The notes under the pieces are model-generated. The model saw only the letters and a program-made list of their open reading frames with translations. It did not search any database and had not been told where the DNA came from. DNA of 32,000 nt from positions 2,760,001-2,792,000 of the forward strand of contig NC_006512.1 of the NCBI RefSeq assembly GCF_000008465.1, read 5' to 3'. Origin of the DNA: Idiomarina loihiensis L2TR (GTDB lineage: Bacteria; Pseudomonadota; Gammaproteobacteria; Enterobacterales; Alteromonadaceae). Below are positions 4,294 through 31,443 of the stretch, in pieces (the stretch's first letter is position 1; every line of letters begins with the position of its first letter). Made by a program: the position numbers and the translations under genes.

Positions 4294-5716
4294 ATAAAAA
4301 GCGGCTCTGATGCGTATTAGTTATATCCGCATTATCAACCGCTGTGACCACGAAGTAAAACTCTGTGACCTGACCTTCTAATAATGATGGTGGAACCGCT
4401 ACGGTTACCGGCAAGGTTCCGACTTCACCCGCAGAAACCTGTTTCGTAGAATCGCCAATTAACTCGAACTCATCAAAACCTTTAACTTCCACGCGGTAAG
4501 TCATGTCCTGTTGCGACTTATTGACCAGCTTTAAGGTAAAGACGTTTTCAATTTGTCCTTCTATATTTTCTCTGAACAGTTGGTTACGGTCACGTAATAC
4601 ATCAACCTCCAGAGGCACACGGGTCGCGACGTCCCAAACCAGTACGGTACTAACTACGAGAACCATAATAAAGTAGCCGATACTCTTCATCCGCCACGGA
4701 TTGGTTTTCTCTTTTTTGTTTTTGGCGGCTAAGTTACGTTCAGTGGTAAAGCGGATAAGTCCTTTTGGATAATTCATTTTATCCATAACGTCATTACAGG
4801 CATCAATACAGGCGCCACAGTCGATGCACTCGTATTGCAGACCGTTTCGGATATCGATGCCGGTAGGGCAGACCTGCACACACATATAGCAGTCAATACA
4901 GTGACCTAAGCCTTTTTCAGCCGGATCAGCCTTACGCGAGCGTGGGCCTCGGGGCTCGCCCCTTTCAGCATCATAAGACACGGTGTAAGTGTCTTTATCG
5001 AACATAGCCGACTGGAAACGCGCATAAGGACACATGTGCGTACACATAATTTCCCGCATATAACCGGCGTTACCATAAGTACAGAATGCGAAAAAAAGAA
5101 CACTGAAGGTTGCCCAGAAACCGGCGTCCAGGGTAAAGAAGTTCAGGAAAAGTTCGCGTATGTCAGTAAAGTAACCCACAAAGATCATTGCGGTTAATAG
5201 AGACACCAGGATCCAGCCGGTCTGTTTACCGGTTTTGCGCCAGAACTTGTCAAAGTCCATTTTGCGTTCATCCAGTTTTATACGCTTATTGCGCGGCCCT
5301 TCGAACTTTTTCTCAAACCACATGAAAATAAAGGTCCAGGTGGTTTGCGGGCACATAAACCCACACCAGACCCGACCAAAAACGGTTGTCACAAAAAATA
5401 ACGCAACGGCGGCCACAATCGCAAACCAGGCAACTACAGTGAAGTCCTGCGGCCACAAAGTTAAGCCATAAATACGGAAGCGCTGATCCATAATATCGAG
5501 CAGAACTGCTTGTTCGCCCTGATAAGTCAGCCAGGGAATGAGAGCAAAGACAGCCAGCAATAGAAAACCAAACCCACGTCTAAAATACTCCATGGCACCT
5601 TTGGTATCACGCACGTAAATTCGGCTGCGGGGGGAGTAGTTATCGTTGTGTTTCTGTCCGTCTGGACGTTGAATTTTGACTTTATCGGCGGACTGAACCG
5701 TTATTTTTTGTTCCAT
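4286..5716 (-). CDS. ccoG: Cytochrome c oxidase accessory protein CcoG/FixG (polyferredoxin-like membrane protein)
   Basis: TM helices plus two 4Fe-4S ferredoxin motifs (CIDCYMCVQVCPTGIDIR and CIDCGACIDAC), a CGFMCPQ motif and a C-terminal Ig-like region. The start is uncertain: ATG at 5716 (MEQKITV) or GTG at 5728, neither with a strong SD. The stop overlaps the srkA start by 8 nt. Confidence 0.85.
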   Translation of the reverse strand: MEQKITVQSADKVKIQRPDGQKHNDNYSPRSRIYVRDTKGAMEYFRRGFGFLLLAVFALIPWLTYQGEQAVLLDIMDQRFRIYGLTLWPQDFTVVAWFAIVAAVALFFVTTVFGRVWCGFMCPQTTWTFIFMWFEKKFEGPRNKRIKLDERKMDFDKFWRKTGKQTGWILVSLLTAMIFVGYFTDIRELFLNFFTLDAGFWATFSVLFFAFCTYGNAGYMREIMCTHMCPYARFQSAMFDKDTYTVSYDAERGEPRGPRSRKADPAEKGLGHCIDCYMCVQVCPTGIDIRNGLQYECIDCGACIDACNDVMDKMNYPKGLIRFTTERNLAAKNKKEKTNPWRMKSIGYFIMVLVVSTVLVWDVATRVPLEVDVLRDRNQLFRENIEGQIENVFTLKLVNKSQQDMTYRVEVKGFDEFELIGDSTKQVSAGEVGTLPVTVAVPPSLLEGQVTEFYFVVTAVDNADITNTHQSRFLYE

Positions 5717-11009: not shown

Positions 11010-12143
11010 ATGTTCAATCCAAAGTTTGTTTTAACGGCAATATTGGCAGCTTCCGTAAGCGTGACGGCCACAGCCGAAGATGTCGAAACCGAACGCCATA
11101 AAGTTAGTGTCAGCACACTTGCGGATGGCTTTACTAACCCCTGGGGTATGACTTTTCTTCCTGACAAAAGCATTTTAGTTACCGAGCGCTCCGGCGACAT
11201 CTACTGGGTATCCGCCGACGGCAGTTATCGCGAAAAGATAAGCGGAACACCAGAGGTGGTAGCACAAGGCCAGGGTGGTATGCTGGATATTACCACTGAC
11301 CCTGACTTTGCTGAGAATAACTGGGTTTATATTAGCTACTCTGAAGCAGCACAGGACGGTGGGAAAGGGAATAGTACGGCCGTTATGCGGGCGAAACTTG
11401 ACGATAAAGAATTTACTGAGCAGGAAGTTGTTTTCCGTCAGGCACCTAAGTATGAAAGCAATAACCACTTTGGTTCCCGGTTAGTCTTTTCACCTGAAGG
11501 GCACTTATACATTACTTTAGGTGACCGCTATTCACGTATGGATGACGCACAGACACTGGATAACCATCACGGTAAAGTGATACGCATATGGCCTGATGGC
11601 AGCATCCCGAAAGACAACCCTTTTGTTAACAATGATAACGCTCTGGACGAAATCTGGTCTTACGGTCACCGCAATGTGCAGGGTGCCGATATTCATCCTG
11701 AAACGGGCGAGCTCTGGACTGTTGAACATGGCCCACAAGGCGGTGACGAAGTAAACATTCCGGAAGCTGGCAAAAATTACGGTTGGCCAGAAATTACTTA
11801 TGGTGTTGATTATGGCGGTGGCATTATCAGCGAAGACGCAGTCAAAGAAGGTATGGAGCAACCCTTCTATTACTGGGTACCCTCTATTGCCACGGCCGGA
11901 GCCACATTTTACAACGGCGATGCGTTTCCTGAGTGGAAAGGCGATTTCTTTGTCGCAGCTTTGAAAAGTTCACTGGTTGCTCGCCTGGACTTGTATGAAG
12001 GTCGTATGATGCATGAAGAGCGTTTATTTGAAGATGCTGTTGAAGCTCGTATTCGCGACATTAACCAAGGCCCTGACGGTTACCTCTATTTATTAACCGA
12101 CCAGCCTGACGGTGCCATCATTCAAATAAAACCGGCGGATTAA
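11010..12143 (+). CDS. yliI: Periplasmic PQQ-dependent aldose/sugar dehydrogenase (YliI/Asd type)
   Basis: Signal peptide (..SVSVTATA/ED). Colinear blocks match recalled E. coli YliI: PWGMTFLPD, GQGGMLD, NHFGSRLVF, IWSYGHRN.QG, EHGPQGGDE.N, GKNYGWP, IRD...GPDGYLYLLTD. AAGGAGAG SD upstream. Confidence 0.85.
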   Translation: MFNPKFVLTAILAASVSVTATAEDVETERHKVSVSTLADGFTNPWGMTFLPDKSILVTERSGDIYWVSADGSYREKISGTPEVVAQGQGGMLDITTDPDFAENNWVYISYSEAAQDGGKGNSTAVMRAKLDDKEFTEQEVVFRQAPKYESNNHFGSRLVFSPEGHLYITLGDRYSRMDDAQTLDNHHGKVIRIWPDGSIPKDNPFVNNDNALDEIWSYGHRNVQGADIHPETGELWTVEHGPQGGDEVNIPEAGKNYGWPEITYGVDYGGGIISEDAVKEGMEQPFYYWVPSIATAGATFYNGDAFPEWKGDFFVAALKSSLVARLDLYEGRMMHEERLFEDAVEARIRDINQGPDGYLYLLTDQPDGAIIQIKPAD

Positions 12144-12144
12144 T

Positions 12145-14178
12145 ATGTTGTACTCAGCTGTATTAAGAAAACTCACTTACACGGGGCTGCCTTTATTGGC
12201 GGCCTCTTTCGTTGTTCACTCCGCAGAAGTAGATGAAACCGTTGTTGTTACAGCGACACAAAGCGAGACGCCCTGGTTGACTACTGCGGCCAGTATCGAC
12301 CGCGTGAGCGTGGAAAACACCTTACCTTCTATGAAGATTGATGCTGGCGATGCCTTAGCCGGGGTGGCGGGCATTCAGGCTGACAACCGTTACAACTACG
12401 CACAGGATACACGCCTGGTGGTTCGGGGCTTTGGCTCGCGTGCGGCCTTTGGAGTAAGGGGTTTGCAGTTAAATGTCGACGGCATTCCGTTATCTATGCC
12501 CGACGGACAGGCACAAACTTCGAGCATTTTTCTCGACAGCATTGATTCGCTGGAAGTATTGCGCGGTCCATTAGCAACGCTGTACGGTAACTCCGGCGGT
12601 GGTGTGGTTGAATGGTTCAGCCGCAAGCCAACAGAAACCGCGTTGGAATGGGGTGGACAGTTCAGCGAAAATGACACTCAGCGGTACAATATTAATGCCC
12701 AGTGGGCAACCAACACCAATCAGCTGCAAATTTTAGCCTCAGATTTTCAGACCGACGGCCCGCGCAGGCATAACTCAGCCGAGCGCCAACAGCAGGCGAT
12801 ACGCTGGTATCATCAGTGGGACGAGCAGAACCGCTTTGTTATTCGTTACGACAATAACGATGCGCCATTATTGCAAGACCCCAGCGCACTAACGCCCGAA
12901 GACTGGCGCGAAGACCCAACTCAGACAGTACAACGGGCAATTGATTTCAACACGCGGAAAGATATTCACCACCGTCAGGGGTCTTTCAGCTGGTTTCATG
13001 AGAGCAACAATGGTGAGGGGTTACTCTCGCTGTGGCAGGGTGACCGCGATATAGAGCAGTTTCTGCCTTTTGCCGGTGACGACACAACAAGCTCGGGGGC
13101 CGTCATTGATGTCTCTCGTCAATTTGAAGGTGCTCATGCGCGCTGGCGTCAACGCGGAGTTAACTGGTCAGCAACCGTGGGAGCGCAATTAGAACGCCAG
13201 CAGGATCATCGCTTTGGTTATGTGAATGACAGCGGTGAAAAAGGTGACTTGCGCCGCAACGAATTCAACTGGATTGAAAATGCATCAGCTTATCTACGTT
13301 TTCAGTGGCAGTTATCGGAAGAGCTTTCAGCAACCGGCGGAGTTCGTTACAGCGACATCAATTATGAGGTAGAAGACTACTTTACCGATCTGGATAACTC
13401 CGATGACAGCGGCAGCAGCGACTTTAGTGAGACCACCGCAGCTGTTTCAGTTACCTGGCAGTTTCTGCCTACCTCGGCGACTTATCTGAGCATCGGGCAG
13501 GGATTTGAAACACCGACACTGACTGAGCTGGCATACCGAAATCAGGGCTCGGGCCTGAACCGCGAACTGGGTCCGTCCACGAATGATCAGTGGGAATGGG
13601 GTATCAAACACCAACTACCACAAGACTGGCGACTGCATTTCGCGTTCTTCGGTATTAAAAGCGAGGACGAAATACTGGTGGATCAGTCAAACGACGGTCG
13701 CACAACCTACCGCAACGCGTCGGAAACCTCGCGCGAAGGTGCTGAGCTCAGTATTAACGGCGCACTGACCCAGCAGTTAGATTTACTACTGTCATACAGT
13801 TACATCGATGCCACCTTTGATAATGGTCCGTTACAGGGGAATCAGTTGCCCGGCGTAGCAAAAAGTCAGGGCTATCTGCGTCTTAACTGGCAACCCACAG
13901 AGCAGTGGCTAGTTCAGTTAGCCGGCCAGTACCGTAACGAGACACCGGTTAATGATGCAAATGATACCTTTGCCCCGTCTTACACGACCTGGGATATTGC
14001 TGTAAGCCGCGATTGGCAATGGGCTAAGAGCGAGCTGGATGTGTGGGTACGGGTTGATAACATTACCGACAAAGACTACGTAGGAGCTGTTGTGGTTAAT
14101 CAGGGCAGTGGACGTTCATTTGAGCCCGCCGTAGGCCGGCAGGCAAGCGTCGGCATTAGCTGGCGCCGACGCTTTTAA
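12145..14178 (+). CDS. TonB-dependent receptor, YncD/PqqU-like (candidate PQQ importer)
   Basis: Signal peptide, plug domain and a beta-barrel ending in an aromatic residue (..ISWRRRF). Blocks NYAQD..L.VRGFGSR...G.RG..L.VDGIP..MPDGQ.QTS and DN..DK.YVG.V.VN...GR..EP..GR resemble my recollection of E. coli YncD. The ATG lies 1 nt after the dehydrogenase stop. Confidence 0.8.
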   Translation: MLYSAVLRKLTYTGLPLLAASFVVHSAEVDETVVVTATQSETPWLTTAASIDRVSVENTLPSMKIDAGDALAGVAGIQADNRYNYAQDTRLVVRGFGSRAAFGVRGLQLNVDGIPLSMPDGQAQTSSIFLDSIDSLEVLRGPLATLYGNSGGGVVEWFSRKPTETALEWGGQFSENDTQRYNINAQWATNTNQLQILASDFQTDGPRRHNSAERQQQAIRWYHQWDEQNRFVIRYDNNDAPLLQDPSALTPEDWREDPTQTVQRAIDFNTRKDIHHRQGSFSWFHESNNGEGLLSLWQGDRDIEQFLPFAGDDTTSSGAVIDVSRQFEGAHARWRQRGVNWSATVGAQLERQQDHRFGYVNDSGEKGDLRRNEFNWIENASAYLRFQWQLSEELSATGGVRYSDINYEVEDYFTDLDNSDDSGSSDFSETTAAVSVTWQFLPTSATYLSIGQGFETPTLTELAYRNQGSGLNRELGPSTNDQWEWGIKHQLPQDWRLHFAFFGIKSEDEILVDQSNDGRTTYRNASETSREGAELSINGALTQQLDLLLSYSYIDATFDNGPLQGNQLPGVAKSQGYLRLNWQPTEQWLVQLAGQYRNETPVNDANDTFAPSYTTWDIAVSRDWQWAKSELDVWVRVDNITDKDYVGAVVVNQGSGRSFEPAVGRQASVGISWRRRF

Positions 14179-20666: not shown

Positions 20667-21545
20667 TTAATGGTCTCGACAAGCTTCGTCAGGGTATTCC
20701 AGTTCAATGGTGGTATGAGCTAATTCAAACGCTGCCAGCTGCTGTGATATTTGCTGCTTTAACTGTGCGCGCTCTGAACATTCCAGTTCTTTTGATACCA
20801 CAATATGCGCGGTTAATACATGACGCTCGCCATCCAACGACCAAAAATGCAAATGATGGGCGTCATCAACCAGTTCCAGCGAGGTCAATTGCTCACGTAT
20901 TTTCCGGTACACTTCGAGGTCTGGTGAGGCCTGAACAAAGAGCTTAACGGTAGAACCCAAGTGACGAAGAACGTTAACCAGAATGAACAAAGTGAAGCCA
21001 ATGGAAAGCAGAGGGTCAAGAATAGGCCAGTCGACAAAGATTAAGATAATCGACACGATTAAAACAGCAACCCAGCCCAGAACGTCCTCTAGTAAGTGCC
21101 AGTTAAGTACGCGTTCGTTTAACGATTTACCATGAGACAATTTAAACGCCGCATAACCATTCACAATAACGCCAAATACCGCCAGTAACGCCATACCCTC
21201 CGCCATCGGCATTACCGGGTTCCATAAACGGGGAATGGCTTCAAATAAAATCCAGATTGAGCCTGCAGTCAGTACAACCGCGTTAATAAAAGCGCCAACC
21301 AGAGATAAGCGTTGATAGCCATAGGTAAAGGTCTGCGTGGCATCTTTACGACTGAATTTATCCAGCAACCAGGCCATACCAATAGAAATGCTGTCGCCGA
21401 GATCGTGCACCGCGTCAGCTAAAATGGCCGTACTATTGGTTAATATCCCACCGATAAATTCAATAACGGTAAAGCACAGATTAAGGAAAAACGCCCAACC
21501 AATTCGCTCCGATGAGCTCTCGTGGTGATGATGGTGATGGTGCAT
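20667..21545 (-). CDS. Cation diffusion facilitator (CzcD/ZitB-type) metal efflux transporter with an N-terminal His7 tract
   Basis: Six TM helices with the CDF metal-site motifs HDLGD (TM2) and HLLED (TM5), plus a C-terminal cytoplasmic domain. I place the start at MHHHHHHHESS (ATG complement 21543-21545) with AAGGAG 5 nt upstream. The track ORF starts 27 nt earlier. Confidence 0.9.
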   Translation of the reverse strand: MHHHHHHHESSSERIGWAFFLNLCFTVIEFIGGILTNSTAILADAVHDLGDSISIGMAWLLDKFSRKDATQTFTYGYQRLSLVGAFINAVVLTAGSIWILFEAIPRLWNPVMPMAEGMALLAVFGVIVNGYAAFKLSHGKSLNERVLNWHLLEDVLGWVAVLIVSIILIFVDWPILDPLLSIGFTLFILVNVLRHLGSTVKLFVQASPDLEVYRKIREQLTSLELVDDAHHLHFWSLDGERHVLTAHIVVSKELECSERAQLKQQISQQLAAFELAHTTIELEYPDEACRDH

Positions 21546-21621
21546 AAAGCTCCTTATTACCAATGTTAGCACCCATTCATCTTAATACTAAGCGAGTCAG
21601 AATTCGACATCAGAGATTTAT

Positions 21622-21636
21622 TGTTATAATATAACA
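21622..21636. promoter_or_regulatory. Zur box TGTTATAATATAACA overlapping the -10 hexamer of the TonB-receptor promoter
   Basis: 15-bp palindrome (symmetric apart from the central base) identical to the core of the gammaproteobacterial Zur operator (..ATGTTATAATATAACAT..). It contains TATAAT (21625-21630), with a possible -35 TTCGAC at 21603-21608 (16-nt spacer). It lies 38 nt upstream of the receptor ATG and 77 nt upstream of the CDF ATG. Confidence 0.8.
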
Positions 21637-21673: not shown

Positions 21674-23755
21674 ATGAAATACCAAACAGTTACCTTAAGT
21701 TTACTCTCTATCATAAGTATGGGCTCGTTTGCGCAAGAACAGGAGTCTTTCGAACACATTGAAGTCAATTATCGTCAGGCTTACCGCGGAGATGTTCCTG
21801 TTTCAGAAATTCCTCAGGCAATTACTACGCTGGACCGCAGCCTGGTGGATGATATTAATATTTCCCGTTTTCGCGATATTTTGCTGTTTTCTCCGTCAAT
21901 TGCTTTGCAAAACGACGGCGGTAACTTATGGGACAGCTACTCCATGCGCGGGTTTCCGGGCAACGAAAATGTACCTACTGGTTATTTAGTTAATGGTTTC
22001 TCCAGTGGTCGCGGATTCGGCGGGCATCGGGACGTTTCCAATATTGAGTACGTAGAAGTTCTGAAAGGCCCGGGCTCTGCACTGTATGGCCGCTCGGACC
22101 CGGGAGGGGTAATTAATGTAGTTACTCGTAAACCACAATACGCGCCGGAAGGATACTTAAAGACTTCCCTTGGCAGCGATGACCGCTATCGTCTTGAAGG
22201 AGACTACACCAGCGGCCTTAGCGATAGCCTCGCCATGCGGATAAACGGTGCAATACAGGACGACGACAGTTTCCGCGATCATGTCAGCAGCAAGAAAAAG
22301 GTTATTAACCCGTCGCTGCGCTGGCAACTGGATAAAGACACCTCCATACTTTATTCGTTTGAGTTCATGCAGCAGGAGCAGTTGTTTGACCGCGGCATTG
22401 TCGTTTTAGATAACAACATTAAAACTGTTCCACGAGAACGCTTTCTGGGCGAACCAAGTGATGACCCTACTAAAATCAATTCACAAGGCCACCAGTTAAC
22501 CTTTGAGCACTATCTGCAAAACGACTGGTTTTTAACCGGTGGTATTAATGCCAGAAGCACAAAGTTGGACGGCTACTCGTCAGATGCCGAGCTATCCGGC
22601 TCGCGCCAGAAACTATTTGAAGACGGCCGCACTCTGACACGTCAGCATCGCCGTCGTGACTATGACTCCGATGATTTATCAGTAAGGTTGGAATTAAGCG
22701 GTAACACAGAGCTGTTCGGTATGACCCATCACTTATTGATGGGAGCCGACGCATACCGTTATGACTTATACACCTTATTGGCTCGCGCCCGTCCGGAGCC
22801 AGGCACTTACGAGCTGGATATTTTTAACCCTCAGTATGGCGCAGCTAAACCAGAACTCCAGACTCAATACATTAACGATGAGAATCAAAAGGGCTTCGGT
22901 TTGTACGTGCAGGATCAACTTGAGCTTAATGACCAGTGGCATCTACTGCTGGGTTTAAGGCTGGATCAGTACACACAGGAAACCTTAGAGCTGGTTTCAG
23001 GTACGGAATCTGAACAGGATGACAGCCGGGTTAGCCCACGCGTTGCACTGAGCTACTTGCCAACGGATAACTTAACCCTGTATGCCAGTTATTCAGAAGG
23101 CTTTGTTCCTATTAGCGGCACCGACTTCGAAGGTCAGGGTTTTGACCCGGAAGAGAGCGACTCAGTAGAGCTGGGCATGAAATATTCCGCTCATGGCTTT
23201 CGGTTAAATGCGGCTGTTTTCGATGCCACCAAAACCAACATTCTTACGGATGACCCGGCTCACCCAGGCTATCCAGCCACGCTGGGCGCAGCAACCAGTA
23301 GAGGGTTTGAAATAGAAGGGGGCATGTCGCTAGGCAGTTACACCGATTTACAGGTTGCCTACAGCTACATAGACAGTGAAACAAAAAATGATATTACCGT
23401 TTACGACTGGGGCGTCAATGTCCCTGCCGGTAGTGACCTGGTAAATATTCCTCAGAATACCTTTAACGCCATGGTTAAACACGACCTCAGACACTGGCAA
23501 ATTAATGCTGATATAGGGCTTACTGCTCGCTATGTGGATGACCGTTTAGGCGCTACGGTCGATCAGTCGTATCGTCTGCCCAGTTATCAGGTGTTTGATC
23601 TGTTCTATACACACCGGTTAACCGACAACACTGAATTACAGATAAACGTTGATAACCTTTTTGACGAGTATTACATGTCGAACGCCTACTCTGCGCTTTG
23701 GACAACACCAGGAGCCCCAAGACAGTTTTCAGTGAGCCTGACTTATGAATTCTAA
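21674..23755 (+). CDS. TonB-dependent outer-membrane receptor (Zur-box controlled; ZnuD-like role inferred)
   Basis: 693 aa with a signal peptide (..SMGSFA/QE), plug domain (VEVLKGPGSALYGRSDPGGVINVVT) and a barrel ending ..SLTYEF. Confidence 0.9.
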   Translation: MKYQTVTLSLLSIISMGSFAQEQESFEHIEVNYRQAYRGDVPVSEIPQAITTLDRSLVDDINISRFRDILLFSPSIALQNDGGNLWDSYSMRGFPGNENVPTGYLVNGFSSGRGFGGHRDVSNIEYVEVLKGPGSALYGRSDPGGVINVVTRKPQYAPEGYLKTSLGSDDRYRLEGDYTSGLSDSLAMRINGAIQDDDSFRDHVSSKKKVINPSLRWQLDKDTSILYSFEFMQQEQLFDRGIVVLDNNIKTVPRERFLGEPSDDPTKINSQGHQLTFEHYLQNDWFLTGGINARSTKLDGYSSDAELSGSRQKLFEDGRTLTRQHRRRDYDSDDLSVRLELSGNTELFGMTHHLLMGADAYRYDLYTLLARARPEPGTYELDIFNPQYGAAKPELQTQYINDENQKGFGLYVQDQLELNDQWHLLLGLRLDQYTQETLELVSGTESEQDDSRVSPRVALSYLPTDNLTLYASYSEGFVPISGTDFEGQGFDPEESDSVELGMKYSAHGFRLNAAVFDATKTNILTDDPAHPGYPATLGAATSRGFEIEGGMSLGSYTDLQVAYSYIDSETKNDITVYDWGVNVPAGSDLVNIPQNTFNAMVKHDLRHWQINADIGLTARYVDDRLGATVDQSYRLPSYQVFDLFYTHRLTDNTELQINVDNLFDEYYMSNAYSALWTTPGAPRQFSVSLTYEF

Positions 23756-24890
23756 AACTATCACGCAAAGAATTAACAGTATTGATGCGTTGCGTGGGCT
23801 GGTCATTATATTGATGTTGCTGGACCACGTACGGGAGAGGTTCTTTTATAATCACCCGGTTGCAGACCCTATGATACTGGAAACTACGGAGCCGGGCTTA
23901 TTCTGGAGCCGTTTTGCCGCACATTTTTGTGCGCCCATATTTGTGTTTCTAACCGGCCTTTCAGCCTGGTTGTATCAGCAAAAGCATGACGGTTCGCCCA
24001 GCGTCGCCCGTGAGTTTTTATGGAAGCGCGGACTGTTCCTGGTGATATTGGAACTTACGGTCATCAACTTTTCATGGTTTGGCGCCTACGAAACACTGTA
24101 CCTGCAAGTAATATGGGTTATTGGTCTGTGCATGCTCATTCTGGGTGCCTGCGTTAATTTACCGTACCGGCTTCTGTTTGTGTTGGGTCTGCTTATTGTT
24201 GCCGGGCATAACGCGCTGGACTTTATCCACCTTAAACCGGGTGAGTGGGGCTATACAGCCTGGACCATTCTTCATGACCGCGGCTATATTTTACAGTCCG
24301 ACGCATTATCAATACGAGCCAGCTACCCGTTACTGCCGTGGATAGGCGTTATTTTGCTGGGTTATGCGGCCGGACCTTTGTATTCCAAATCCTTCTCATC
24401 TGAGCGCAGAGCCTATTGGTTATTAGGGCTAACGACGTTTTGCCTCGCCGGCTTTCTGTTGCTGCGTGGTTTTAATATCTACGGCGAGACACAGGCCTGG
24501 TCTCAGCAAGAGAGTTTAGCCGCCACCGCGCGGGCTATATTCAATGTGACCAAGTACCCGCCATCGCTGAATTTTCTGCAAATAACCTTTGCCGGCATGT
24601 TTGCCATGCTTTACCTAATGGAGCGCTTACAAGGAAAGTGGACGGAAGTTCTGACCGCTTTCGGTGGCGCACCCATGTTTTTCTACATAGTCCATCTTTA
24701 CGTTTTATTGCTGCTTTATACTCTGGCTACCGCAGTTTTAGGGGCGCCGGAGGAAGGCTTTATGAGTCTGCCCAACATTTATTGGGTGTGGTTAACCACC
24801 ATTGTACTGGCCGCCTTACTGTATAAGCCAACGCAAGTGTTTAACCGATACAAACGTCGCAGCAATAAAGCCTGGGTGAAATATTTATGA
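23745..24890 (+). CDS. DUF1624 (HGSNAT-like transmembrane acyltransferase fold) membrane protein
   Basis: 381 aa, polytopic. N-terminal R.NSIDALRGLVIILMLLDHVRE and C-terminal FGGAPMFFYIVH blocks are characteristic of DUF1624 / heparan-alpha-glucosaminide N-acetyltransferase-like proteins. Its ATG lies 11 nt inside the receptor gene. Confidence 0.75.
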   Translation: MNSKTITQRINSIDALRGLVIILMLLDHVRERFFYNHPVADPMILETTEPGLFWSRFAAHFCAPIFVFLTGLSAWLYQQKHDGSPSVAREFLWKRGLFLVILELTVINFSWFGAYETLYLQVIWVIGLCMLILGACVNLPYRLLFVLGLLIVAGHNALDFIHLKPGEWGYTAWTILHDRGYILQSDALSIRASYPLLPWIGVILLGYAAGPLYSKSFSSERRAYWLLGLTTFCLAGFLLLRGFNIYGETQAWSQQESLAATARAIFNVTKYPPSLNFLQITFAGMFAMLYLMERLQGKWTEVLTAFGGAPMFFYIVHLYVLLLLYTLATAVLGAPEEGFMSLPNIYWVWLTTIVLAALLYKPTQVFNRYKRRSNKAWVKYL

Positions 24891-24907
24891 TGGTTAAGGA
24901 GAAAGGC

Positions 24908-25267
24908 ATGAGTGACAGACTCGGTATATTTTTCTCTGGCCTGTGTTTTGTTCATTGTCTGGCAACGCCAATACTGCTTATTTTTCTGGGGACAAACTCG
25001 TTAGCGAGTGTTCTGGAAACGCCTTTGTTCCACCGGCTATTATTGCTGCCGGTGTTAACCATGGCGATATTTCAGGGGTATTATGCCTGGAAAAACCCGC
25101 AGGCGAAGCTCAGTCGGGTACTACTGCCGCTTGGTTGTTTAGCGGTCGTTATCGCCCAGTTTTTTCATGGCCCAATTGAAATCTTACTCACTATTATTGG
25201 CTCGCTTACCTTAATTAGTGGTCACTTTTTTCATTTAAAGCACGAGCACTGCGCAGATCAGAACTGA
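24908..25267 (+). CDS. MerC-like small membrane protein (4 TM) with Cys/His motifs
   Basis: About 119 aa from the ATG at 24908 (AAGGAGAAAGGC upstream; the track ORF starts at 24887). DR.G...SGLCFVHCLATP in the first TM helix resembles MerC-domain proteins. The C-terminal tail HFFHLKHEHC is rich in metal ligands. Confidence 0.6.
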   Translation: MSDRLGIFFSGLCFVHCLATPILLIFLGTNSLASVLETPLFHRLLLLPVLTMAIFQGYYAWKNPQAKLSRVLLPLGCLAVVIAQFFHGPIEILLTIIGSLTLISGHFFHLKHEHCADQN

Positions 25268-26490
25268 CCCGCGCTACTTGTAAGATAAAAGCCCATTCCG
25301 CCTAGCAGCCAAAGAACACTGATACCACACAGCCCATTCATAACCTTGTCACCTAAAGACGAACCGCCGCCATGGTCATGATGATGGTGGTGTTCGTGTT
25401 CTTTTTGCTTCTGCCGCCAAAGCACAACCATAACCACGCTCAGCAGTAAGAAAATAAGGTTGAGAACAAAACCATAGTCCAACTTAAAGTGCTGTTGTTC
25501 TGCCGGAGAGGACCACTGCGACGCATCCGGCAGTAGATCAAACGCCAGTAAACCATAATGCATAGCTAAAGACGCCGCTACCAGGCAGGTAAATAGCATT
25601 AAGGTAATATACAGTGCCATTTTCCAGCCATAATAACGCGCATTAATTTTAACAACCGGCAGTACAATTAAGTCGGAGAAAATAAACGCCATAACCCCGG
25701 CAAAGGCCACACCTTCACCAAACAAAACGGCCGCTAATGGAATGTTGCCCATAGAACCAATAAAGGTGAAAAATGCAGCCACCGGACCCACTATCGCTTG
25801 TTGAAGTAACGACCAGAAACCCGGGTCACCCTCTGTACCCACACCAATAAACAACCATTCAAAAAACGCACTAGGCAAAAAGGCTGAAATAACGCCGGCA
25901 ACGGTAAAACCAATGAGTACGTCTTGCCAGACCATTTGCCATTCCATTACGTACTTTTGGCCAACTTTCTGCCAGGTATCCTTACTGAAAAGATCCGATA
26001 ATGTGCTCTCGTGTTGATGTTCGTCGTCCTCTTCGTCTTCTTTTCGCGCATTCTTAATTAGGTTTTTAGGGTTGGTTAGCGTAATAAAGAGCCAGACGAA
26101 TAGAATTAGCAACAACCCGCCAACGTATTCACCAACTACAAACTGCCAACCAAGGAAAATAGAAATAACAAAACCCAGTTCAATAACCAGATTCGTGGAG
26201 GCCAGCATAAACGCCATTGAAGCACTGAACGCAGCCCCTTTGTTAAACAAAGCCCGGGTGGTTGATAGCGCAGCAAAACTGCAGGAACTGGAGATAAAGC
26301 CAAAGAAAGTACCCAGCGACACAGACTTAAGATCATTGCCGCCCATAGCCTTGCGCATTCGCCGCTTAGTGATAAGCACTTGGATTAAGCTACTGATTAA
26401 ATAACCTAATACAAACGCCCACAGCGCCATCCAGAAAAAACCCAGGCTGGTATAGGCCGACTCACCCCATAGCGATAGAAAATTCTCCAT
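25258..26490 (-). CDS. DUF318/ArsP-type permease with His/acidic-rich loops
   Basis: 410 aa, about 10 TM helices. The GFISSSCSFAALSTTRALFNKGA and ASTNLVIELG blocks are typical of the DUF318 permease family. A central loop reads KEDEEDDEHQHES and a C-proximal loop reads KEHEHHHHHDHGGG. AAGGAG SD. Confidence 0.7.
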   Translation of the reverse strand: MENFLSLWGESAYTSLGFFWMALWAFVLGYLISSLIQVLITKRRMRKAMGGNDLKSVSLGTFFGFISSSCSFAALSTTRALFNKGAAFSASMAFMLASTNLVIELGFVISIFLGWQFVVGEYVGGLLLILFVWLFITLTNPKNLIKNARKEDEEDDEHQHESTLSDLFSKDTWQKVGQKYVMEWQMVWQDVLIGFTVAGVISAFLPSAFFEWLFIGVGTEGDPGFWSLLQQAIVGPVAAFFTFIGSMGNIPLAAVLFGEGVAFAGVMAFIFSDLIVLPVVKINARYYGWKMALYITLMLFTCLVAASLAMHYGLLAFDLLPDASQWSSPAEQQHFKLDYGFVLNLIFLLLSVVMVVLWRQKQKEHEHHHHHDHGGGSSLGDKVMNGLCGISVLWLLGGMGFYLTSSAGQF

Positions 26491-26683: not shown

Positions 26684-28003
26684 TTAAGCTGAGCTTTTAA
26701 TAAGAGTCTTTGAGTGTTCTTTATAGAAGCGCTGGCGGAAAAACCAGGCGGAACATACCATCAACACGCTACCCAGAAGAGCCGTAAAGTAAGCGCTCTC
26801 TAATAGAAAGTTTAGCCAACTTAGCTTTATTTCAAAGAAGTTACGGTACAGCAGTATACCGACGGTTCCCGCATAACCCATAGCATCCGCGATATAAATA
26901 AGAAATCCGGCATTAGCTTTGTCGTTTATCATCGATAACATGCGATCGAAAATAAGACAGTTAAAAGGAACATAAGCCAGATAAATCCCAATAGTTAGCG
27001 CTATCATCCATGATGAACCTGAAATTCCACCGCTTTGATAGAATAAGCTGCTAACACCTAAGAGAAGAAATCCCCCAATAACCATCAGATGGTTAACCAT
27101 AAATGCCCGAAAATTGTTTTTAATCCACATTATCGAGCTTAGCAAAAGTAGAACAGTCAATGACGTATACAGCGCAACGGAAGAAAATATTGCGGGTCTG
27201 TCGCCATACCCTAGTTCTATCCATATTTCTGCTGCAAAATTGTCACTGAAGTCGCGCATAGCGGTCAGTAATATATAACTGACGACCATGCAGCCCAAAC
27301 CTATCGAGTATTTCCGCACTAATTGGATCCTATCTTCGGATGTCATTGGCTCCCTTTTATGGCGTTCCTCTTTATCCTGGTGTGTCGGCGGGGGAATCCT
27401 GGAAAGAAAATATACGGAAATGAATAACGGGATAGTAAAAATAGCGCCCGTGGCAGCCGGCATCCAGTATTCGCTGACTTGTAAGTCCAGCATCAGGTAT
27501 TTACCGACGGTTTTTACGACACCAGAAGACACAATGAAACTAATAGATAAAATAGCACCCAAGACTTCCGTGGTTCTTCTTCCCTCTAAGTAACTGAAGA
27601 CCAGGCCCCAGATTATGCCTAACGGTAAACCGTTAAAGAATAGCGCGACTAGCTTCCAGTTCCCCGGCGCAACGGCAAAAGCCATAAGTGAGCACTGTGC
27701 TGCCATTACCAACGTGAGAATGGCAACACTGCGATAATTTGCCGTCATTTCCGATACGACTTTAATACCGACAAACTTGGATAGGGCGTAACCTAATACC
27801 TGCGCAATAATTAATGCACTTTTGAAATCGATCCCTGCAACGAACTGAGCCTGTTCGTAGCTTGCCACGGCAAAAGGCTTCCGGAACGCATACATACAAA
27901 AATAGGTCGAGAAAGCGGCACTTGAGGCGTAGAGAATAAACCAGAAGGTGTTACTGCGCTTTGTATTCTTAGTGAGAGAAACCATAAGTGCCATTCCTAC
28001 CAT
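26684..28003 (-). CDS. 12-TM MFS-fold-like transporter of unknown substrate (resembles the DUF5690 family from memory)
   Basis: About 440 aa and very hydrophobic with about 12 TM segments. It carries the blocks YFCMYAFRKPF and LGYALSKFVGIKVVSE. The track start (28018) is a TTG, so I list the first ATG (28003), but the start is uncertain. It lies 58-73 nt downstream of the DeoR gene on the same strand. Confidence 0.55.
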   Translation of the reverse strand: MVGMALMVSLTKNTKRSNTFWFILYASSAAFSTYFCMYAFRKPFAVASYEQAQFVAGIDFKSALIIAQVLGYALSKFVGIKVVSEMTANYRSVAILTLVMAAQCSLMAFAVAPGNWKLVALFFNGLPLGIIWGLVFSYLEGRRTTEVLGAILSISFIVSSGVVKTVGKYLMLDLQVSEYWMPAATGAIFTIPLFISVYFLSRIPPPTHQDKEERHKREPMTSEDRIQLVRKYSIGLGCMVVSYILLTAMRDFSDNFAAEIWIELGYGDRPAIFSSVALYTSLTVLLLLSSIMWIKNNFRAFMVNHLMVIGGFLLLGVSSLFYQSGGISGSSWMIALTIGIYLAYVPFNCLIFDRMLSMINDKANAGFLIYIADAMGYAGTVGILLYRNFFEIKLSWLNFLLESAYFTALLGSVLMVCSAWFFRQRFYKEHSKTLIKSSA

Positions 28004-28076
28004 TGTGAGAACGGCCAATATTACGCGCAGAATATGAAGAATTTATGTTACTACCCGACGCTAACCTGATAGCGGG

Positions 28077-28832
28077 TTAACGGCTACAAATAACCTCCAC
28101 TTGGGCATTATCGAGTGCAGATTTCAACGGGTCTTCGGGCGGTTTATCACAAACTATCGTATCAATTTGGTCAAAATCGGCCAGATGAACGGAACCAGCC
28201 CCACTAAACTTTGAAGAATCGGTCAGTACGACTTTTCGGCGAGCTCTATCAAGAAGTGAACGCTTAAAATTAGCCTCATCAATACTGAAATCAAGTAGCC
28301 CTATGTCGGAATGAATACCACCGATAGACAGAAATAGCAGATCGGGTGTGAACTGCCGAGCCTGAATAATAGCTTCCCGCCCGAAAGCGGCCCGGTAATC
28401 TGGATCAATTTGTCCACCAGTAAATGCTAACCGCCAATCATCGCGACCAATGACTTCATTTGCTACATCCAGCGAATTTGTCACTACCAGTAACTTCTTA
28501 GGTTTGGTCAACATTCTTGAAAACCAGTAACTGGTTGAACCACAGTCAATAAAAACCGTCATCCCATCTTCGACTAATTCGGTAGCTTTCTCTCCAACTT
28601 CTTTTTTAGCCGCAGCATTCAAACTTACGCGCCCTTGGTATGGGGGCTCTAGAGTTGAAGTGGAAAGACGAACTCCACCATGCACTTTAACCACTCTGCC
28701 GGTAGTTTCTAACTGCCGTATATCACGTCGTATGGTTTCTTCTGACACCTCAAAACGCTGTGAAAGATCGACAACAGACATTGATCTATGAAGCCTAATC
28801 AACTCCAACATAGTGATTAAACGCTCAGACAT
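28077..28832 (-). CDS. DeoR-family transcriptional regulator
   Basis: N-terminal HTH (LSQRFEVSEETIRRDIRQLE..G.V.KVHGG) and a C-terminal sugar-phosphate-binding DeoR_C-like domain. The start is ambiguous: Met at 28832 (MSERLITML, typical DeoR N-terminus), 28844 or 28880. Confidence 0.85.
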   Translation of the reverse strand: MSERLITMLELIRLHRSMSVVDLSQRFEVSEETIRRDIRQLETTGRVVKVHGGVRLSTSTLEPPYQGRVSLNAAAKKEVGEKATELVEDGMTVFIDCGSTSYWFSRMLTKPKKLLVVTNSLDVANEVIGRDDWRLAFTGGQIDPDYRAAFGREAIIQARQFTPDLLFLSIGGIHSDIGLLDFSIDEANFKRSLLDRARRKVVLTDSSKFSGAGSVHLADFDQIDTIVCDKPPEDPLKSALDNAQVEVICSR

Positions 28833-28980
28833 ATTCACATCCATCCCCACACGTTTATTGGTTGCGCGCATGTAATTCAATGAGTTAACAAGTTGCTACT
28901 TTAGAGCAGAAGTAAATCTTAATCCACTTCCAACATTAAAAACCACATAAACTCACATTATTAATAATTAATACAACAAA

Positions 28981-29014
28981 ATATCACACCACTGTCACAT
29001 TTTAATTCTATATT
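28981..29014 (+). promoter_or_regulatory. Candidate PhoB-dependent promoter: Pho box ATATCAC-ACCA-CTGTCAC, then 10 nt, then -10 TATATT
   Basis: Two 7-bp direct repeats at 11-bp periodicity (28981-28987 and 28992-28998). The second is a near-consensus half-site (CTGTCAT). The spacing to a -10 hexamer (29009-29014) matches what I recall for E. coli phoA. It lies 84 nt upstream of the receptor ATG. Confidence 0.45.
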
Positions 29015-29097
29015 GGCCTCGCTCAAAATCATAGCTGGAGGTGAAAGGTCATTTTGGTCCTATTACTTCCACGTTTAGCATACCTGGGGAGATACAC

Positions 29098-31443
29098 ATG
29101 AACGGCTACAAACGATTTGCACTTTCACCATTAATACTGGCAATAGCCTCAGCATCAGCGATAGCTGATCAGGATAAAGAAGAAACGAGTAAAAAAGACG
29201 AACAAATGGAAGAAATCATTGTTGTAGGTAAGAGACAGACTTTCGCCTCAAACACGGTTTCAATGGATATGATTTCACGTCGTCCAGCCAATGCTTCAGT
29301 AAACACTGTTGTACAGGAATTACCCGGAGTTATTGTACAGGAAGCTGATACCTTCGGTTCATCTGACTGGATGACTAACATCCGAATGCGAGGCTTTAAT
29401 ACCAATAACGGGCAAATTGGTACAACGCTTGATGGCTTACCAAACGGCGGCTCAAACTACGGCGGCGGTAGTAAAGCGAATAGATTTATTGACGTGCTCG
29501 ATCTTGAAACCGTGGAAGTCAGTCAGGGAACGGCGGATATCAGCTCGAGATCAAATGAGGCATTAGGTGGAACACTGAATTTCATTACTTCCGATCCATT
29601 AATGGAAGAAAACTTAAGCTTACTCTATATGGCAGGCGACCAGGACGCGAGTAAGTACCGTTTCCGTTACGACTCAGGTGAAATTAGTCCAGATACCTAC
29701 TTCTATCTCAGTGGCTCATCTTCGCAAAATAAGGACGTTTGGGATAATGAAGCTATCACGGAGAAAGATTATCTTACGGGTAAAATCACAACCATTATTG
29801 ATGGGTTTCATATTACAGGCTTCGCTACCTACAATTCGGCTAATGAAAACGAATATGAATATGTTTCTTTAGAAGATTATTATGAAAACCCTCGTCACGA
29901 CGGATTACACATGAACTGGACCGGAATTCCTGGTCTTGATGAAAACTATCGCGATGGCTGGCGTGCACTGCGTGATAATTCATTTTATAGTTTTCAGGTC
30001 GAAAAAGACTTTGGCAACTTTTCATTCAATACCGCCGTTTATTATCACAGAATGAAAGGCCGTGGTGACTGGATCCCTCCCTACATTACCGATGTCGATG
30101 GAGATGGAAACCTGGATAACGAACGCTCCGGTAACACAATTTATGGCGATTACGAGGGTGACGATATCTTTTTCGTTAACGCCGGTACAAATGTACCAGG
30201 TACATTGATTGACTCTTGCACTGGTCGATATGGTTTAGACGCTGAAAAAGATCCCAATTGTTATGATGGCAATGTCGAAGGGGTTGGCTCATATCGTACG
30301 TCAAATTATGCCAATCATCGTTATGGCATAACGGGGGATGTTTCCTACGACTTTGAAACTGGCAACATACAACATACCTTACGCAGCGGGTTTTGGTATG
30401 AAAACTACGATGCCGATGTAACGCGCTCATGGCATTTAGTTGAGAACTCGGCAATTAGCCCGGAATTCAATGAAACCCCTTACTGGATTCAATATAAAAC
30501 CGAAGCAAACACTAAAGAACTCATGTACTACGCTCAGGAAAAAGCGGTTTTAGGCCCGCTGAGCGCAAGTCTCGGCGTAAAACAATATCAGGTCGATACT
30601 ACGGTTGATCACTTCTATAACGATGACAGAACGGGTCAATTAGACTCCACTTCAGATCCGTTACTCTACGCAGGGTTAACCTATACAACACCGGTTAATG
30701 GTTTAGAGTTATTTGCCGGCTACTCTGAAAACTATAAATCCATTGTTCCTGGTATCATTGATTCCGGTTTATCTAATTCAGAACTGGGTGGCATTGATCC
30801 TGAAACGGCGGAGAACATTGAGTTAGGCTTCCGTTATATCAACAATGGCTTTAACGCAGCGGTTACCTTATACGACATTAAATTCGATAACCGAATTGTA
30901 CAATTGGATACTAGTGTATTGGATGGTATCGATTACAAAGAAGAAGTCGACGGCAGCTATGTGAACGTTGGTGGTCAGAAGAGTCGCGGCGCTGAACTGC
31001 TCACCTCATATCAAGTTACCAGCGGCCTGAGAGTTTCTGGGTCTTATACCTATAATGATGCTGAGTACCTTAGTACAGGTGATACCGGTCTTGACCAAGA
31101 CGCAGAAATTCGGGCTGGGAACCAAGTATACGGCGGACCAAAAACTTTCTTCACCATCGCAGCTGATTATGTCGGTAGCAACATAACGAGTGGAATCTCT
31201 CTGCGCCATATTGGGGATAGATTTATCAACTTTGAGAACTCAGCCACCGCGCCTGGGTATGAAGTGGTAGATGCCTACATTGGTACTGATATTCAGGGTG
31301 TTTCCTCCAGCATATCGGCTCTTCGCCTGCGTTTGAATGTGAATAACCTGCTCGACGATGAGTATATATCGGCTGTTGGCAGTAACAGTGTTTATCCCGG
31401 TTCACCAAGAACGGTGACTTTCTCTGTTAGTGCTGATTTTTAA
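29098..31443 (+). CDS. TonB-dependent outer-membrane receptor
   Basis: Start placed at MNGYKRFALSPLILAIASASAIA (ATG 29098, GGGGAGA upstream). The track's GTG at 29041 adds a non-signal-like extension. Plug domain (VEVSQGTADISSRSNEALGGTLNFIT) and a barrel ending ..SVSADF. Confidence 0.9.
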   Translation: MNGYKRFALSPLILAIASASAIADQDKEETSKKDEQMEEIIVVGKRQTFASNTVSMDMISRRPANASVNTVVQELPGVIVQEADTFGSSDWMTNIRMRGFNTNNGQIGTTLDGLPNGGSNYGGGSKANRFIDVLDLETVEVSQGTADISSRSNEALGGTLNFITSDPLMEENLSLLYMAGDQDASKYRFRYDSGEISPDTYFYLSGSSSQNKDVWDNEAITEKDYLTGKITTIIDGFHITGFATYNSANENEYEYVSLEDYYENPRHDGLHMNWTGIPGLDENYRDGWRALRDNSFYSFQVEKDFGNFSFNTAVYYHRMKGRGDWIPPYITDVDGDGNLDNERSGNTIYGDYEGDDIFFVNAGTNVPGTLIDSCTGRYGLDAEKDPNCYDGNVEGVGSYRTSNYANHRYGITGDVSYDFETGNIQHTLRSGFWYENYDADVTRSWHLVENSAISPEFNETPYWIQYKTEANTKELMYYAQEKAVLGPLSASLGVKQYQVDTTVDHFYNDDRTGQLDSTSDPLLYAGLTYTTPVNGLELFAGYSENYKSIVPGIIDSGLSNSELGGIDPETAENIELGFRYINNGFNAAVTLYDIKFDNRIVQLDTSVLDGIDYKEEVDGSYVNVGGQKSRGAELLTSYQVTSGLRVSGSYTYNDAEYLSTGDTGLDQDAEIRAGNQVYGGPKTFFTIAADYVGSNITSGISLRHIGDRFINFENSATAPGYEVVDAYIGTDIQGVSSSISALRLRLNVNNLLDDEYISAVGSNSVYPGSPRTVTFSVSADF

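Follow-up and report, generated by a model that had tools for sequence, protein, structure and literature searches.

The window analyzed here is a stretch of 32,000 nucleotides (nt) from Idiomarina loihiensis L2TR (contig NC_006512.1, positions 2,760,001 to 2,792,000 of the forward strand), and all coordinates below are counted from its first letter. Its subject is a cluster of three plus-strand genes, coupled behind a Zur-type palindrome, that encode a TonB-dependent receptor (TBDR), a DUF1624 membrane protein with an HGSNAT-like fold, and a MerC-family protein with four transmembrane (TM) helices. A preliminary description of this DNA had proposed that the three genes form a zinc import route. 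The layout that it gave, including the stop and start positions and the AAGGAG preceding the ATG at 24908, was found again in the sequence, and its claim of a Zur-type operator on the -10 hexamer was confirmed in the form of a perfect palindrome over an extended -10 element. The features of the operon are as follows.

21604-21609, plus strand: -35-like element TCGACA from a promoter scan (consensus match only)
21622-21630, plus strand: candidate extended -10 element TGnTATAAT, overlapped by the operator (consensus match only)
21622-21636, no strand: Zur-type operator TGTTATAATATAACA, a perfect 15-bp palindrome in the divergent intergenic region (15/15 consensus match)
21674-23755, plus strand: TBDR of 693 residues, metallophore/siderophore class by profile matches
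23745-24890, plus strand: DUF1624/HGSNAT-fold polytopic inner-membrane protein, predicted, 381 residues (TGA stop at 24888-24890)
24896-24901, plus strand: Shine-Dalgarno sequence AAGGAG, 6 nt ahead of the ATG at 24908
24908-25267, plus strand: MerC-family four-TM protein of the CxxHC subfamily, 119 residues (PF03203 match)

The TAA stop codon of the receptor gene (23753-23755) falls within the next open reading frame (ORF), which starts with the ATG at 23745; the resulting 11-nt overlap suggests that the DUF1624 gene is translationally coupled to the receptor gene. The MerC-like gene has an alternative start, the ATG at 24887 that overlaps the DUF1624 stop codon, but the start at 24908 is favored because the orthologs in other Idiomarina begin with MSDRLG or MTDRLG and also comprise 119 residues.

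The operator lies 38 bp ahead of the receptor ATG and 77 bp from the ATG (21545) of a divergently transcribed cation-efflux gene, and the string TGTTATAAT reads as an extended -10, so that operator and -10 overlap. Although TGTTATAATATAACA is the sole match in the window even when up to 3 mismatches are allowed, such a lone match is not statistically exceptional, as shuffled sequence yields a mean of 1.2 matches at the same tolerance. The significance of the operator comes instead from the recurrence of the same motif upstream of orthologous operons. The survey covered the best 80 DUF1624 loci, drawn from Gammaproteobacteria, Betaproteobacteria, Bacteroidota, and Acidobacteriota. Of the 33 TBDR-DUF1624 pairs among them, 21 are preceded within 250 bp by a Zur box, or by two, with no more than 2 mismatches; the motif lies 40 to 150 bp ahead of these operons. 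Such boxes are found in Pseudoalteromonas (often two of them), Rheinheimera, Colwellia, some Shewanella, Parathalassolituus, Aliidiomarina, Salinimonas, and a metagenome-assembled genome (MAG) of Oceanospirillaceae. Altogether, 35 of the 50 motif hits fall into promoter windows that make up 20.8 kb of 1.106 Mb (1.9%), an enrichment of ∼120-fold. In four loci without the receptor gene (Vibrio, Psychromonas, and two of Pseudomonas), a box immediately precedes DUF1624, and the same motif heads the cobW-DUF1826-ZrgA-(Zur)-MerC-like operons of three further loci (L090, L094, and L095). The link to Zur and zinc is stronger than when it was first proposed, as comparative genomics ties both membrane proteins to Zur regulons. 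Together with the roles outlined below, repression by Zur, which would make this a zinc-starvation operon of I. loihiensis, is the best joint explanation of these data; we consider its chances of being right and of being wrong about equal.

The receptor and the DUF1624 protein

The receptor matches the Plug (67 bits) and barrel (205 bits) domain models, as well as TIGR01783 (333.9 bits against a cut-off of 223.5). It had been likened to the ZnuD class, known from Neisseria, an assignment that was rejected, as the NCBIfam ZnuD model NF038289 gives 32 bits against a cut-off of 950. The nearest solved relatives are FetA (the enantio-pyochelin receptor), FhuA, CntO (the metal-pseudopaline receptor, 148 bits), and FoxA, which, together with the TIGR01783 match, place it in the metallophore class. 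Like CntO of Pseudomonas aeruginosa, it is a TonB-dependent outer-membrane receptor behind a Zur operator. Unlike the CntO system, the operon has no cnt-type biosynthesis or export genes, and its DUF1624 and MerC-like partners occur in no zinc system described in the searched literature.

The product of the middle gene is not named by any NCBIfam model and matches the Pfam families PF07786 (HGSNAT_cat; 66.6 bits against a cut-off of 22, 3e-18) and PF01757 (44.2 bits against a cut-off of 31). A structural model predicted with AF2 from 15 orthologs (pLDDT 86.6, pTM 0.89) retrieves human HGSNAT in all of the best 15 Foldseek matches in the PDB (E-values down to 3e-6, TM-scores of 0.59 to 0.64), followed by GWT1. 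The PF07786 match and the Foldseek result bear out the original DUF1624 assignment and the HGSNAT-like acyltransferase fold proposed with it, and the predicted TM fold is indeed HGSNAT-like. Further likeness to HGSNAT and NagX comes from the conserved N-terminal motif RxxS[IV]DxxRG, which is common to HGSNAT, and from the agreement of the predicted fold with the HGSNAT cryo-EM structures; the identity to HGSNAT is 13 to 16%. In an hhalign comparison (with an HGSNAT query verified against PDB chain 8VKJ_A), His37 of the window protein is paired with the catalytic His297 of HGSNAT in a weak alignment that has a probability of 26% and covers only the 87 N-terminal columns; a His occupies this position in 115 of 117 orthologs. 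The alignment of 15 orthologs from Gammaproteobacteria and Bacteroidota, 65% identical per column with ∼90 invariant residues, contains five other invariant histidines, namely His28 (within a DHVRER motif), His60, His155, His177, and His317.

Bacterial PF07786 proteins (NagX) have been proposed, on the basis of fitness data, to acetylate periplasmic glucosamine using cytoplasmic acetyl-CoA (Price and colleagues; PMC9007349). The NagX branch belongs to chitin and glucosamine utilization; the group of the window protein is linked to Zur and coupled to a metallophore receptor. As no nag or chitin-utilization genes (nagA, nagK, or nagP) were seen in the window or in the surveyed ortholog loci, this group is distinct from the NagX branch.

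Homologs of the DUF1624 protein number in the thousands (at least 590 relatives in a scan of one genome per species), the best 120 being 52 to 100% identical to the window protein, and orthologs with 47 to 59% identity reach other classes and phyla. Directly upstream of DUF1624 and on the same strand, 33 of the 80 surveyed loci carry a receptor ortholog (tblastn bit score above 300, 40 to 56% identity) at distances of -19 to 157 nt; 11 of these 33 pairs overlap, by 8 to 19 nt. Aliidiomarina minuta and Salinimonas chungwhensis, which are closely related to Idiomarina, have the box, the receptor gene, and the DUF1624 gene with the same 11-nt overlap and without a MerC-like gene. Judging from these gene orders, the conserved core is a Zur-controlled TBDR-DUF1624 pair.

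Several other arrangements put DUF1624 next to metal-related genes. In Pseudomonas sp. Leaf48, a Zur box is followed by DUF1624 and genes for Peripla_BP_2, FecCD, and ABC_tran proteins, i.e., a complete FecBCD-type importer. Three loci have a small protein with no Pfam match, HupE/UreJ, a second protein with no Pfam match, and DUF4198 ahead of DUF1624; DUF4198 is the family to which a passage of PMC12663993 assigns the gonococcal periplasmic zinc-capture protein Zcp. A Flavobacteriaceae locus has the order ABC ATPase, TBDR, two DUF3526/ABC-2 permeases, and DUF1624.

Two observations concern the neighbors of DUF1624. Just upstream of the Leaf48 operon (L076, 4444-6779) lie genes for a Haem_oxygenas_2 iron-containing redox enzyme and an S-adenosylmethionine (SAM) methyltransferase, which, by their families, could be small-molecule (metallophore?) tailoring genes. 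In seven Shewanella loci (L012, L015, L025, L026, L043, L048, and L053), a membrane protein of ∼100 residues (cluster C7) with conserved His and Cys residues, a C-terminal SRAPP motif, and no Pfam match is encoded upstream of the TBDR or DUF1624; when a full Zur box was sought upstream of these C7 loci, no more than a half-site turned up, and L012 has a Fur-box-like sequence, gataatgttaataatgatatta, between the C7 gene and DUF1624.

What DUF1624 does for the receptor can be read in two ways. Acyl transfer to an imported ligand, leading to metal release or ligand processing, is the role that we favor, though tentatively and at somewhat less than an even chance. The other reading makes DUF1624 the inner-membrane permease for the receptor cargo, in a two-gene pair like FptA-FptX, with MerC-like being an unrelated Zur-regulon gene that landed downstream. 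A TBDR gene followed by a translationally coupled gene for a polytopic membrane protein is the classic receptor-permease layout, no other transporter gene is present in the operons of Aliidiomarina and Salinimonas, and the MerC-like gene is missing from nearly all DUF1624 loci. In addition, TfMurT, a distant relative in the same family, has been proposed to be an N-acetylmuramate transporter (PMC9007349). Against a permease stand the fold and the Pfam family, which are those of transmembrane acyltransferases (HGSNAT, GWT1, and AT3), the conservation of the acyltransferase-type N-terminal motif and of an extracytoplasmic His, and the company of dedicated transporters, namely the ABC-2/DUF3526 permeases of the Flavobacteriaceae locus and the FecBCD-type importer of Leaf48; because the latter is complete, DUF1624 is unlikely to be the importer there. 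A permease function for DUF1624 thus appears rather unlikely, and the full alternative, with an unrelated MerC-like gene, slightly more so; acyl transfer to the imported ligand remains the favored role.

The MerC-like protein and its genomic contexts

The 119-residue protein matches the Pfam MerC model PF03203 over nearly its full length (model positions 1 to 107 of 108; 94.9 bits against a cut-off of 27.6, 5.7e-27). It carries the sequence GLCFVHCLATP and ends in GHFFHLKHEHCADQN, so both the CFVHC of TM1 and the His/Cys tail HFFHLKHEHC that had been pointed out earlier are present; TM1 reads C13-F-V-H16-C17, and the protein also has His42, Glu91, Thr95, and His106. The AF2 model (pLDDT 80) consists of four helices, and a PDB profile search yielded only spurious hits to repeat proteins and CbiM. 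The positive-inside rule and the helix model predict that the N and C termini are cytoplasmic, which would have Glu39, His42, and Glu91 face the periplasm, place Cys13, His16, and Cys17 in the middle of the membrane within TM1, and leave His106 and the HFFHLKHEHC tail on the cytoplasmic side.

With MerC of Tn21, the protein shares the PF03203 match, a size in the range of ∼120 to 140 residues, four predicted helices, metal ligands within TM1, and a cytoplasmic tail that contains Cys. The differences are that TM1 has C-x-x-H-C where Tn21 MerC has C-A-A-C, that the invariant His42 and Glu91 and the near-invariant His106 are extra in the MerC-like subfamily, and that the genomic context is a Zur regulon rather than a mer operon. 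An exhaustive HMMER search returned 2,184 cluster representatives at E ≤ 1e-3, and CxxHC is present in 147 of the 149 top-listed representatives examined. In an alignment of 41 sequences, Asp3, Ser10, Cys13, His16, Cys17, His42, Gly76, Ala83, Glu91, Thr95, and Gly98 are invariant, and Pro21, His106, and a C-terminal Cys are nearly so. The CxxHC proteins thus form a large and distinct subfamily of the MerC superfamily, in which the Idiomarina form is a divergent branch, 25 to 33% identical to the mainstream, with a His-rich tail where mainstream tails are Cys-rich.

These properties bear on the most conventional interpretation, according to which the small protein is a true MerC-type importer of mercury (or cadmium) in a heavy-metal resistance island and TGTTATAATATAACA is fortuitous or serves another Fur-family regulator. 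The Pfam match at 95 bits, the flanking genes for a cation-efflux protein and a His-rich ArsP_1 permease (described below), and the statistics of a single operator match in one window, which is unexceptional on its own, are all in line with it. However, the NCBIfam MerC equivalogs NF010318 and NF033784, on which Tn21 MerC scores 264 and 200 bits, hit neither the window protein (E ≤ 0.01) nor its mainstream relative P0191 (E ≤ 0.001), even though the PF03203 scores of all three are similar (91 to 104 bits; 95 for the window protein and 91 for Tn21 MerC). BLASTP against Tn21 MerC (a sequence checked against annotated plasmid merC genes, with 100% identity) gives E = 14, i.e., no pairwise similarity, and a tblastn search of 72,556 plasmids with the window protein found no mer-operon gene; canonical merC is present on 3,616 of these plasmids. 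There is also no Pfam or NCBIfam match to merR, merP, or merA in the scanned ORFs, nor is any listed among the called genes of the identical I. loihiensis locus (CP005964.1), which take in the remaining ORFs, and the operator and its Zur context are conserved across genera. Orthology to Tn21 MerC was rejected on these grounds, and the designation of the protein as a MerC homolog holds for the Pfam superfamily and not for MerC proper, given the absence of an equivalog hit and CxxHC in place of CxxC. A role in mercury or cadmium resistance is, in our view, very improbable.

The contexts of mainstream MerC-like genes were sampled in six neighborhoods (two metagenome contigs, Pleionea, Colwellia, a Pseudomonadales MAG, and a Cellvibrionaceae MAG), and all six are zinc-starvation (Zur) islands. 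The usual order is cobW (COG0523), DUF1826, ZrgA, a Fur-family gene, and MerC-like, followed or flanked by a PRA-CH (hisI-like) paralog, GCHY-1 (folE2), a DHOase paralog, and another cobW; a divergent DUF3299-ABC-FtsX (zrgBCDE-like) operon also flanks these islands. In four of these neighborhoods, the MerC-like gene comes directly after the Fur-family gene, presumably zur, and the gene string of one locus also includes ZnuA and an ABC-3 permease. A seventh look-up (P0013) is a 2.7-kb contig in which MerC-like adjoins a gene of the cation-efflux (CDF) family. These islands are of the ZrgABCDE/COG0523 type known from Vibrio cholerae and marine gammaproteobacteria, with the CxxHC MerC-like genes located between zrgA or zur and cobW, folE2, or DUF3299-ABC-FtsX; the Idiomarina gene, unlike these, has moved into a TBDR-DUF1624 operon.

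When all ORFs of 97 loci were scanned with a hidden Markov model (HMM) of the MerC-like subfamily, the only members near DUF1624 were those of Idiomarina and of five Pseudoalteromonas loci. In the latter, a Fur-family gene (158 residues), MerC-like, and DUF3297 precede two Zur boxes and the TBDR-DUF1624 operon, so that MerC-like sits upstream, after the Fur-family gene and outside that operon; three of these loci also encode a TonB_C protein on the other strand, after DUF3297. The idea that receptor, DUF1624, and MerC-like form a conserved unit recurring behind Zur boxes was therefore abandoned: MerC-like follows DUF1624 only in Idiomarina, and Aliidiomarina and Salinimonas lack it. The gene distributions suggest instead that MerC-like is an independent member of the Zur regulon that was recruited into the Idiomarina operon and that this operon joins two modules, each of which is linked to Zur on its own elsewhere.

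In Pseudoalteromonas loci L007, L010, L014, L016, L017, L020, and L021 (at ∼3950-4800), genes for DUF3297 (86 residues) and a periplasmic TonB_C-domain protein (∼150 residues) point away from the TBDR-DUF1624 operon and have the two Zur boxes in common with it; L008 and L009 have DUF3297 without the TonB_C gene. From their position, both proteins are candidate members of the Zur regulon.

The preliminary description had also noted that none of the known inner-membrane partners, ZnuABC or ZIP, accompanies the receptor. This is true of the 32-kb window; it does not extend to the family, as MerC-like genes occur elsewhere in one operon with ZnuA and ABC-3, and MerC-like may therefore supplement known importers, not necessarily replacing them. 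No non-metal context for the DUF1624 and MerC-like groups emerged from the comparative genomics. Zinc import by MerC-like, the direction being assumed because the gene is co-regulated with zinc-starvation genes, is a proposal that we regard as equally liable to hold or to fail.

Zur regulons include many genes that have no part in transport, and folE2, hisI-like PRA-CH, and DHOase paralogs lie beside the MerC-like genes themselves. The receptor and DUF1624 might accordingly belong to a zinc-sparing response instead of uptake, with the MerC-like protein being not an importer but a membrane zinc buffer, a Zur-linked sensor, or a thiol-redox protein. In one version, the pair would import and N-acylate an organic nutrient whose synthesis requires zinc enzymes; in another, DUF1624 would acylate an envelope polymer (peptidoglycan, lipopolysaccharide, or glucans) under zinc starvation. 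Enzymes with the AT3/HGSNAT fold usually act on glycans, NagX is proposed to do so, and the position of MerC-like immediately after zur in many genomes would also suit such roles. On the other hand, a common substrate is favored by the tight coupling between DUF1624 and a receptor of the metallophore class, as well as by the association of DUF1624 with ABC metallophore importers and with Zcp-like and HupE metal proteins, and the conserved Cys, His, and Glu ligands within the MerC-like helices fit metal passage. We consider a zinc-sparing function distinctly unlikely, although not as improbable as mercury resistance, and zinc uptake through both proteins is the reading pursued below.

Flanking genes and other clusters of the window

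The operon is flanked on both sides by genes for metal transporters of probable efflux types, both on the minus strand.

20667-21545, minus strand: CDF (ZitB-like) cation-efflux protein (Cation_efflux and ZT_dimer domains; TIGR01297, 202 bits)
25258-26490, minus strand: ArsP_1-family permease (PF03773, 3e-55)

The CDF protein has an N-terminal tract MHHHHHHH (His7); its longest ORF extends to 21572, and 21545 is the start in the deposited annotation. It is transcribed divergently from the Zur-box intergenic region, an arrangement that is not conserved in other genera, and Zur might control this gene too, by activation or repression. The ArsP_1 gene is convergent with the MerC-like gene, the two overlapping by 10 nt at the 3′ end of the latter; the ArsP_1 product has an acidic/His loop, EDEEDDEHQHES, and the tail HEHHHHHDH and scores weakly (44 to 45 bits, below cut-off) on the models for SO_0444 Cu/Zn efflux and for SaoE. 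The window scan found no Zur box upstream of this gene. By its family and its His-rich segments, this permease is probably another metal transporter of the island, and with such flanks the local theme appears to be metal homeostasis in general.

Two other clusters in the window contain TBDR genes. At 11010-14178 on the plus strand, 2 nt separate a gene for a pyrroloquinoline quinone (PQQ)-dependent soluble glucose/sorbosone dehydrogenase (PF07995, 472 bits) from a downstream TBDR gene, whose product scores highest on PqqU among the NCBIfam models (490 bits, below the cut-off of 1200). These two genes appear to pair a PQQ-dependent enzyme with a receptor that scavenges PQQ. At 26684-31443, genes for a membrane protein of the DUF5690 family and for a DeoR regulator lie on the minus strand, with a divergent TBDR and, further on in the full locus, phospholipase C and a HAD hydrolase; judging by these families, this is probably a separate cluster for scavenging phospho-compounds, unrelated to the zinc operon.

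A candidate route for zinc uptake

Zur-controlled TonB-dependent zinc uptake is itself a known kind of system, and the features shown above, namely the gene structure, the operator, the family and fold assignments, and the recurring Zur-linked context, can be arranged into a variant of it, in which zinc as the substrate, its inward movement, and the acyl transfer and its target are what we infer. The receptor would bring a zinc-loaded chelator, either a zincophore or a xeno-metallophore, into the periplasm. There, DUF1624 would acylate the cargo at the expense of cytoplasmic acyl-CoA, as HGSNAT does and NagX is proposed to do, and the acylation would lower the affinity of the cargo for the metal and release Zn(II), or else ready the ligand for a next step. 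The MerC-like protein would then pass Zn(II) over the inner membrane by ligand exchange, along a path leading from the periplasm-facing Glu39, His42, and Glu91 to Cys13, His16, and Cys17 in mid-membrane and on to His106 and the cytoplasmic His/Cys tail. As a matter of speculation, Zn(II) could then be handed to the co-encoded COG0523 chaperones.

Both proposed inner-membrane steps have precedents. MerC and MerT pass Hg(II) along cysteine pairs by ligand exchange, and the arrangement of residues in the MerC-like protein fits such a relay for a borderline or soft cation. Metals are released from siderophores through ligand modification by the periplasmic esterase PfeE and through acetylation of ferrichrome by FiuC in P. 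aeruginosa, a conceptual parallel to the proposed modification of an imported chelator to make it yield its metal. However, PfeE and FiuC are soluble and act on iron siderophores, whereas the candidate in the window is membrane-embedded, has the HGSNAT fold, and occurs in a zinc context; we know of no membrane-embedded HGSNAT-fold enzyme described in a zinc system.

Several observations weigh against the proposed route. DUF1624 could act as the permease, by analogy with TfMurT, a family relative for which a transporter function has been proposed. The sequence-profile search of the PDB with DUF1624 found nothing, even at E ≤ 10, which makes its kinship with HGSNAT a remote one, and hhalign gives only a weak alignment with HGSNAT (probability of 26% over 87 N-terminal columns). 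For the MerC-like model, Foldseek returned generic four-helix bundles at E > 0.5 and thus no informative structural neighbor. MerC-like coexists with ZnuA and ZnuB, leaving no gap in the pathway that would demand an importer, and its frequent position right after zur could point to a regulatory or sensing role. Twelve of the 33 TBDR-DUF1624 pairs, some Shewanella loci included, have no full Zur box at up to 2 mismatches, metallophore biosynthesis genes are not present in the 32-kb window, and the CDF and ArsP_1 flanks leave the direction of transport unsettled by context. In its complete form, i.e., CxxHC MerC-like proteins as widespread Zn(II) importers working by a Cys/His relay and, in addition, Zur-linked DUF1624 proteins as zincophore acyltransferases that free zinc, the proposal is a conjunction that we would call unlikely as a whole, although worth stating.

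Literature searches found no paper linking DUF1624 or the MerC-like family to zinc, and the main text of Haas et al. (2009) makes no mention of these taxa or genes. In the full-text literature searched, neither the coupling of an HGSNAT-fold protein to Zur-controlled TonB uptake nor the link between Zur and CxxHC MerC-like proteins was found described, although the genes may figure as predicted Zur targets in regulon databases such as RegPrecise.

How zinc passes the Gram-negative envelope when ZnuABC is insufficient, and how it is released from imported metallophores, are at best partly understood. The two uncharacterized membrane-protein families described here are tied to Zur regulons over many genera, with conserved operators, gene order, and candidate ligand and catalytic residues, and both are widely distributed, testable candidates for novel steps by which bacteria take up zinc. 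Acylation of an imported chelator by DUF1624, if it occurs, would be the first membrane-embedded, acyl-CoA-driven step of metal release. If MerC-like proteins import zinc, the Mer-type ligand relay would extend from toxic-metal resistance to essential-metal nutrition. The data suggest that many marine annotations as “MerC mercury resistance protein” are misleading; zinc import would mean that hundreds of them are misnamed, which would matter for counts of mer genes in metagenomes.

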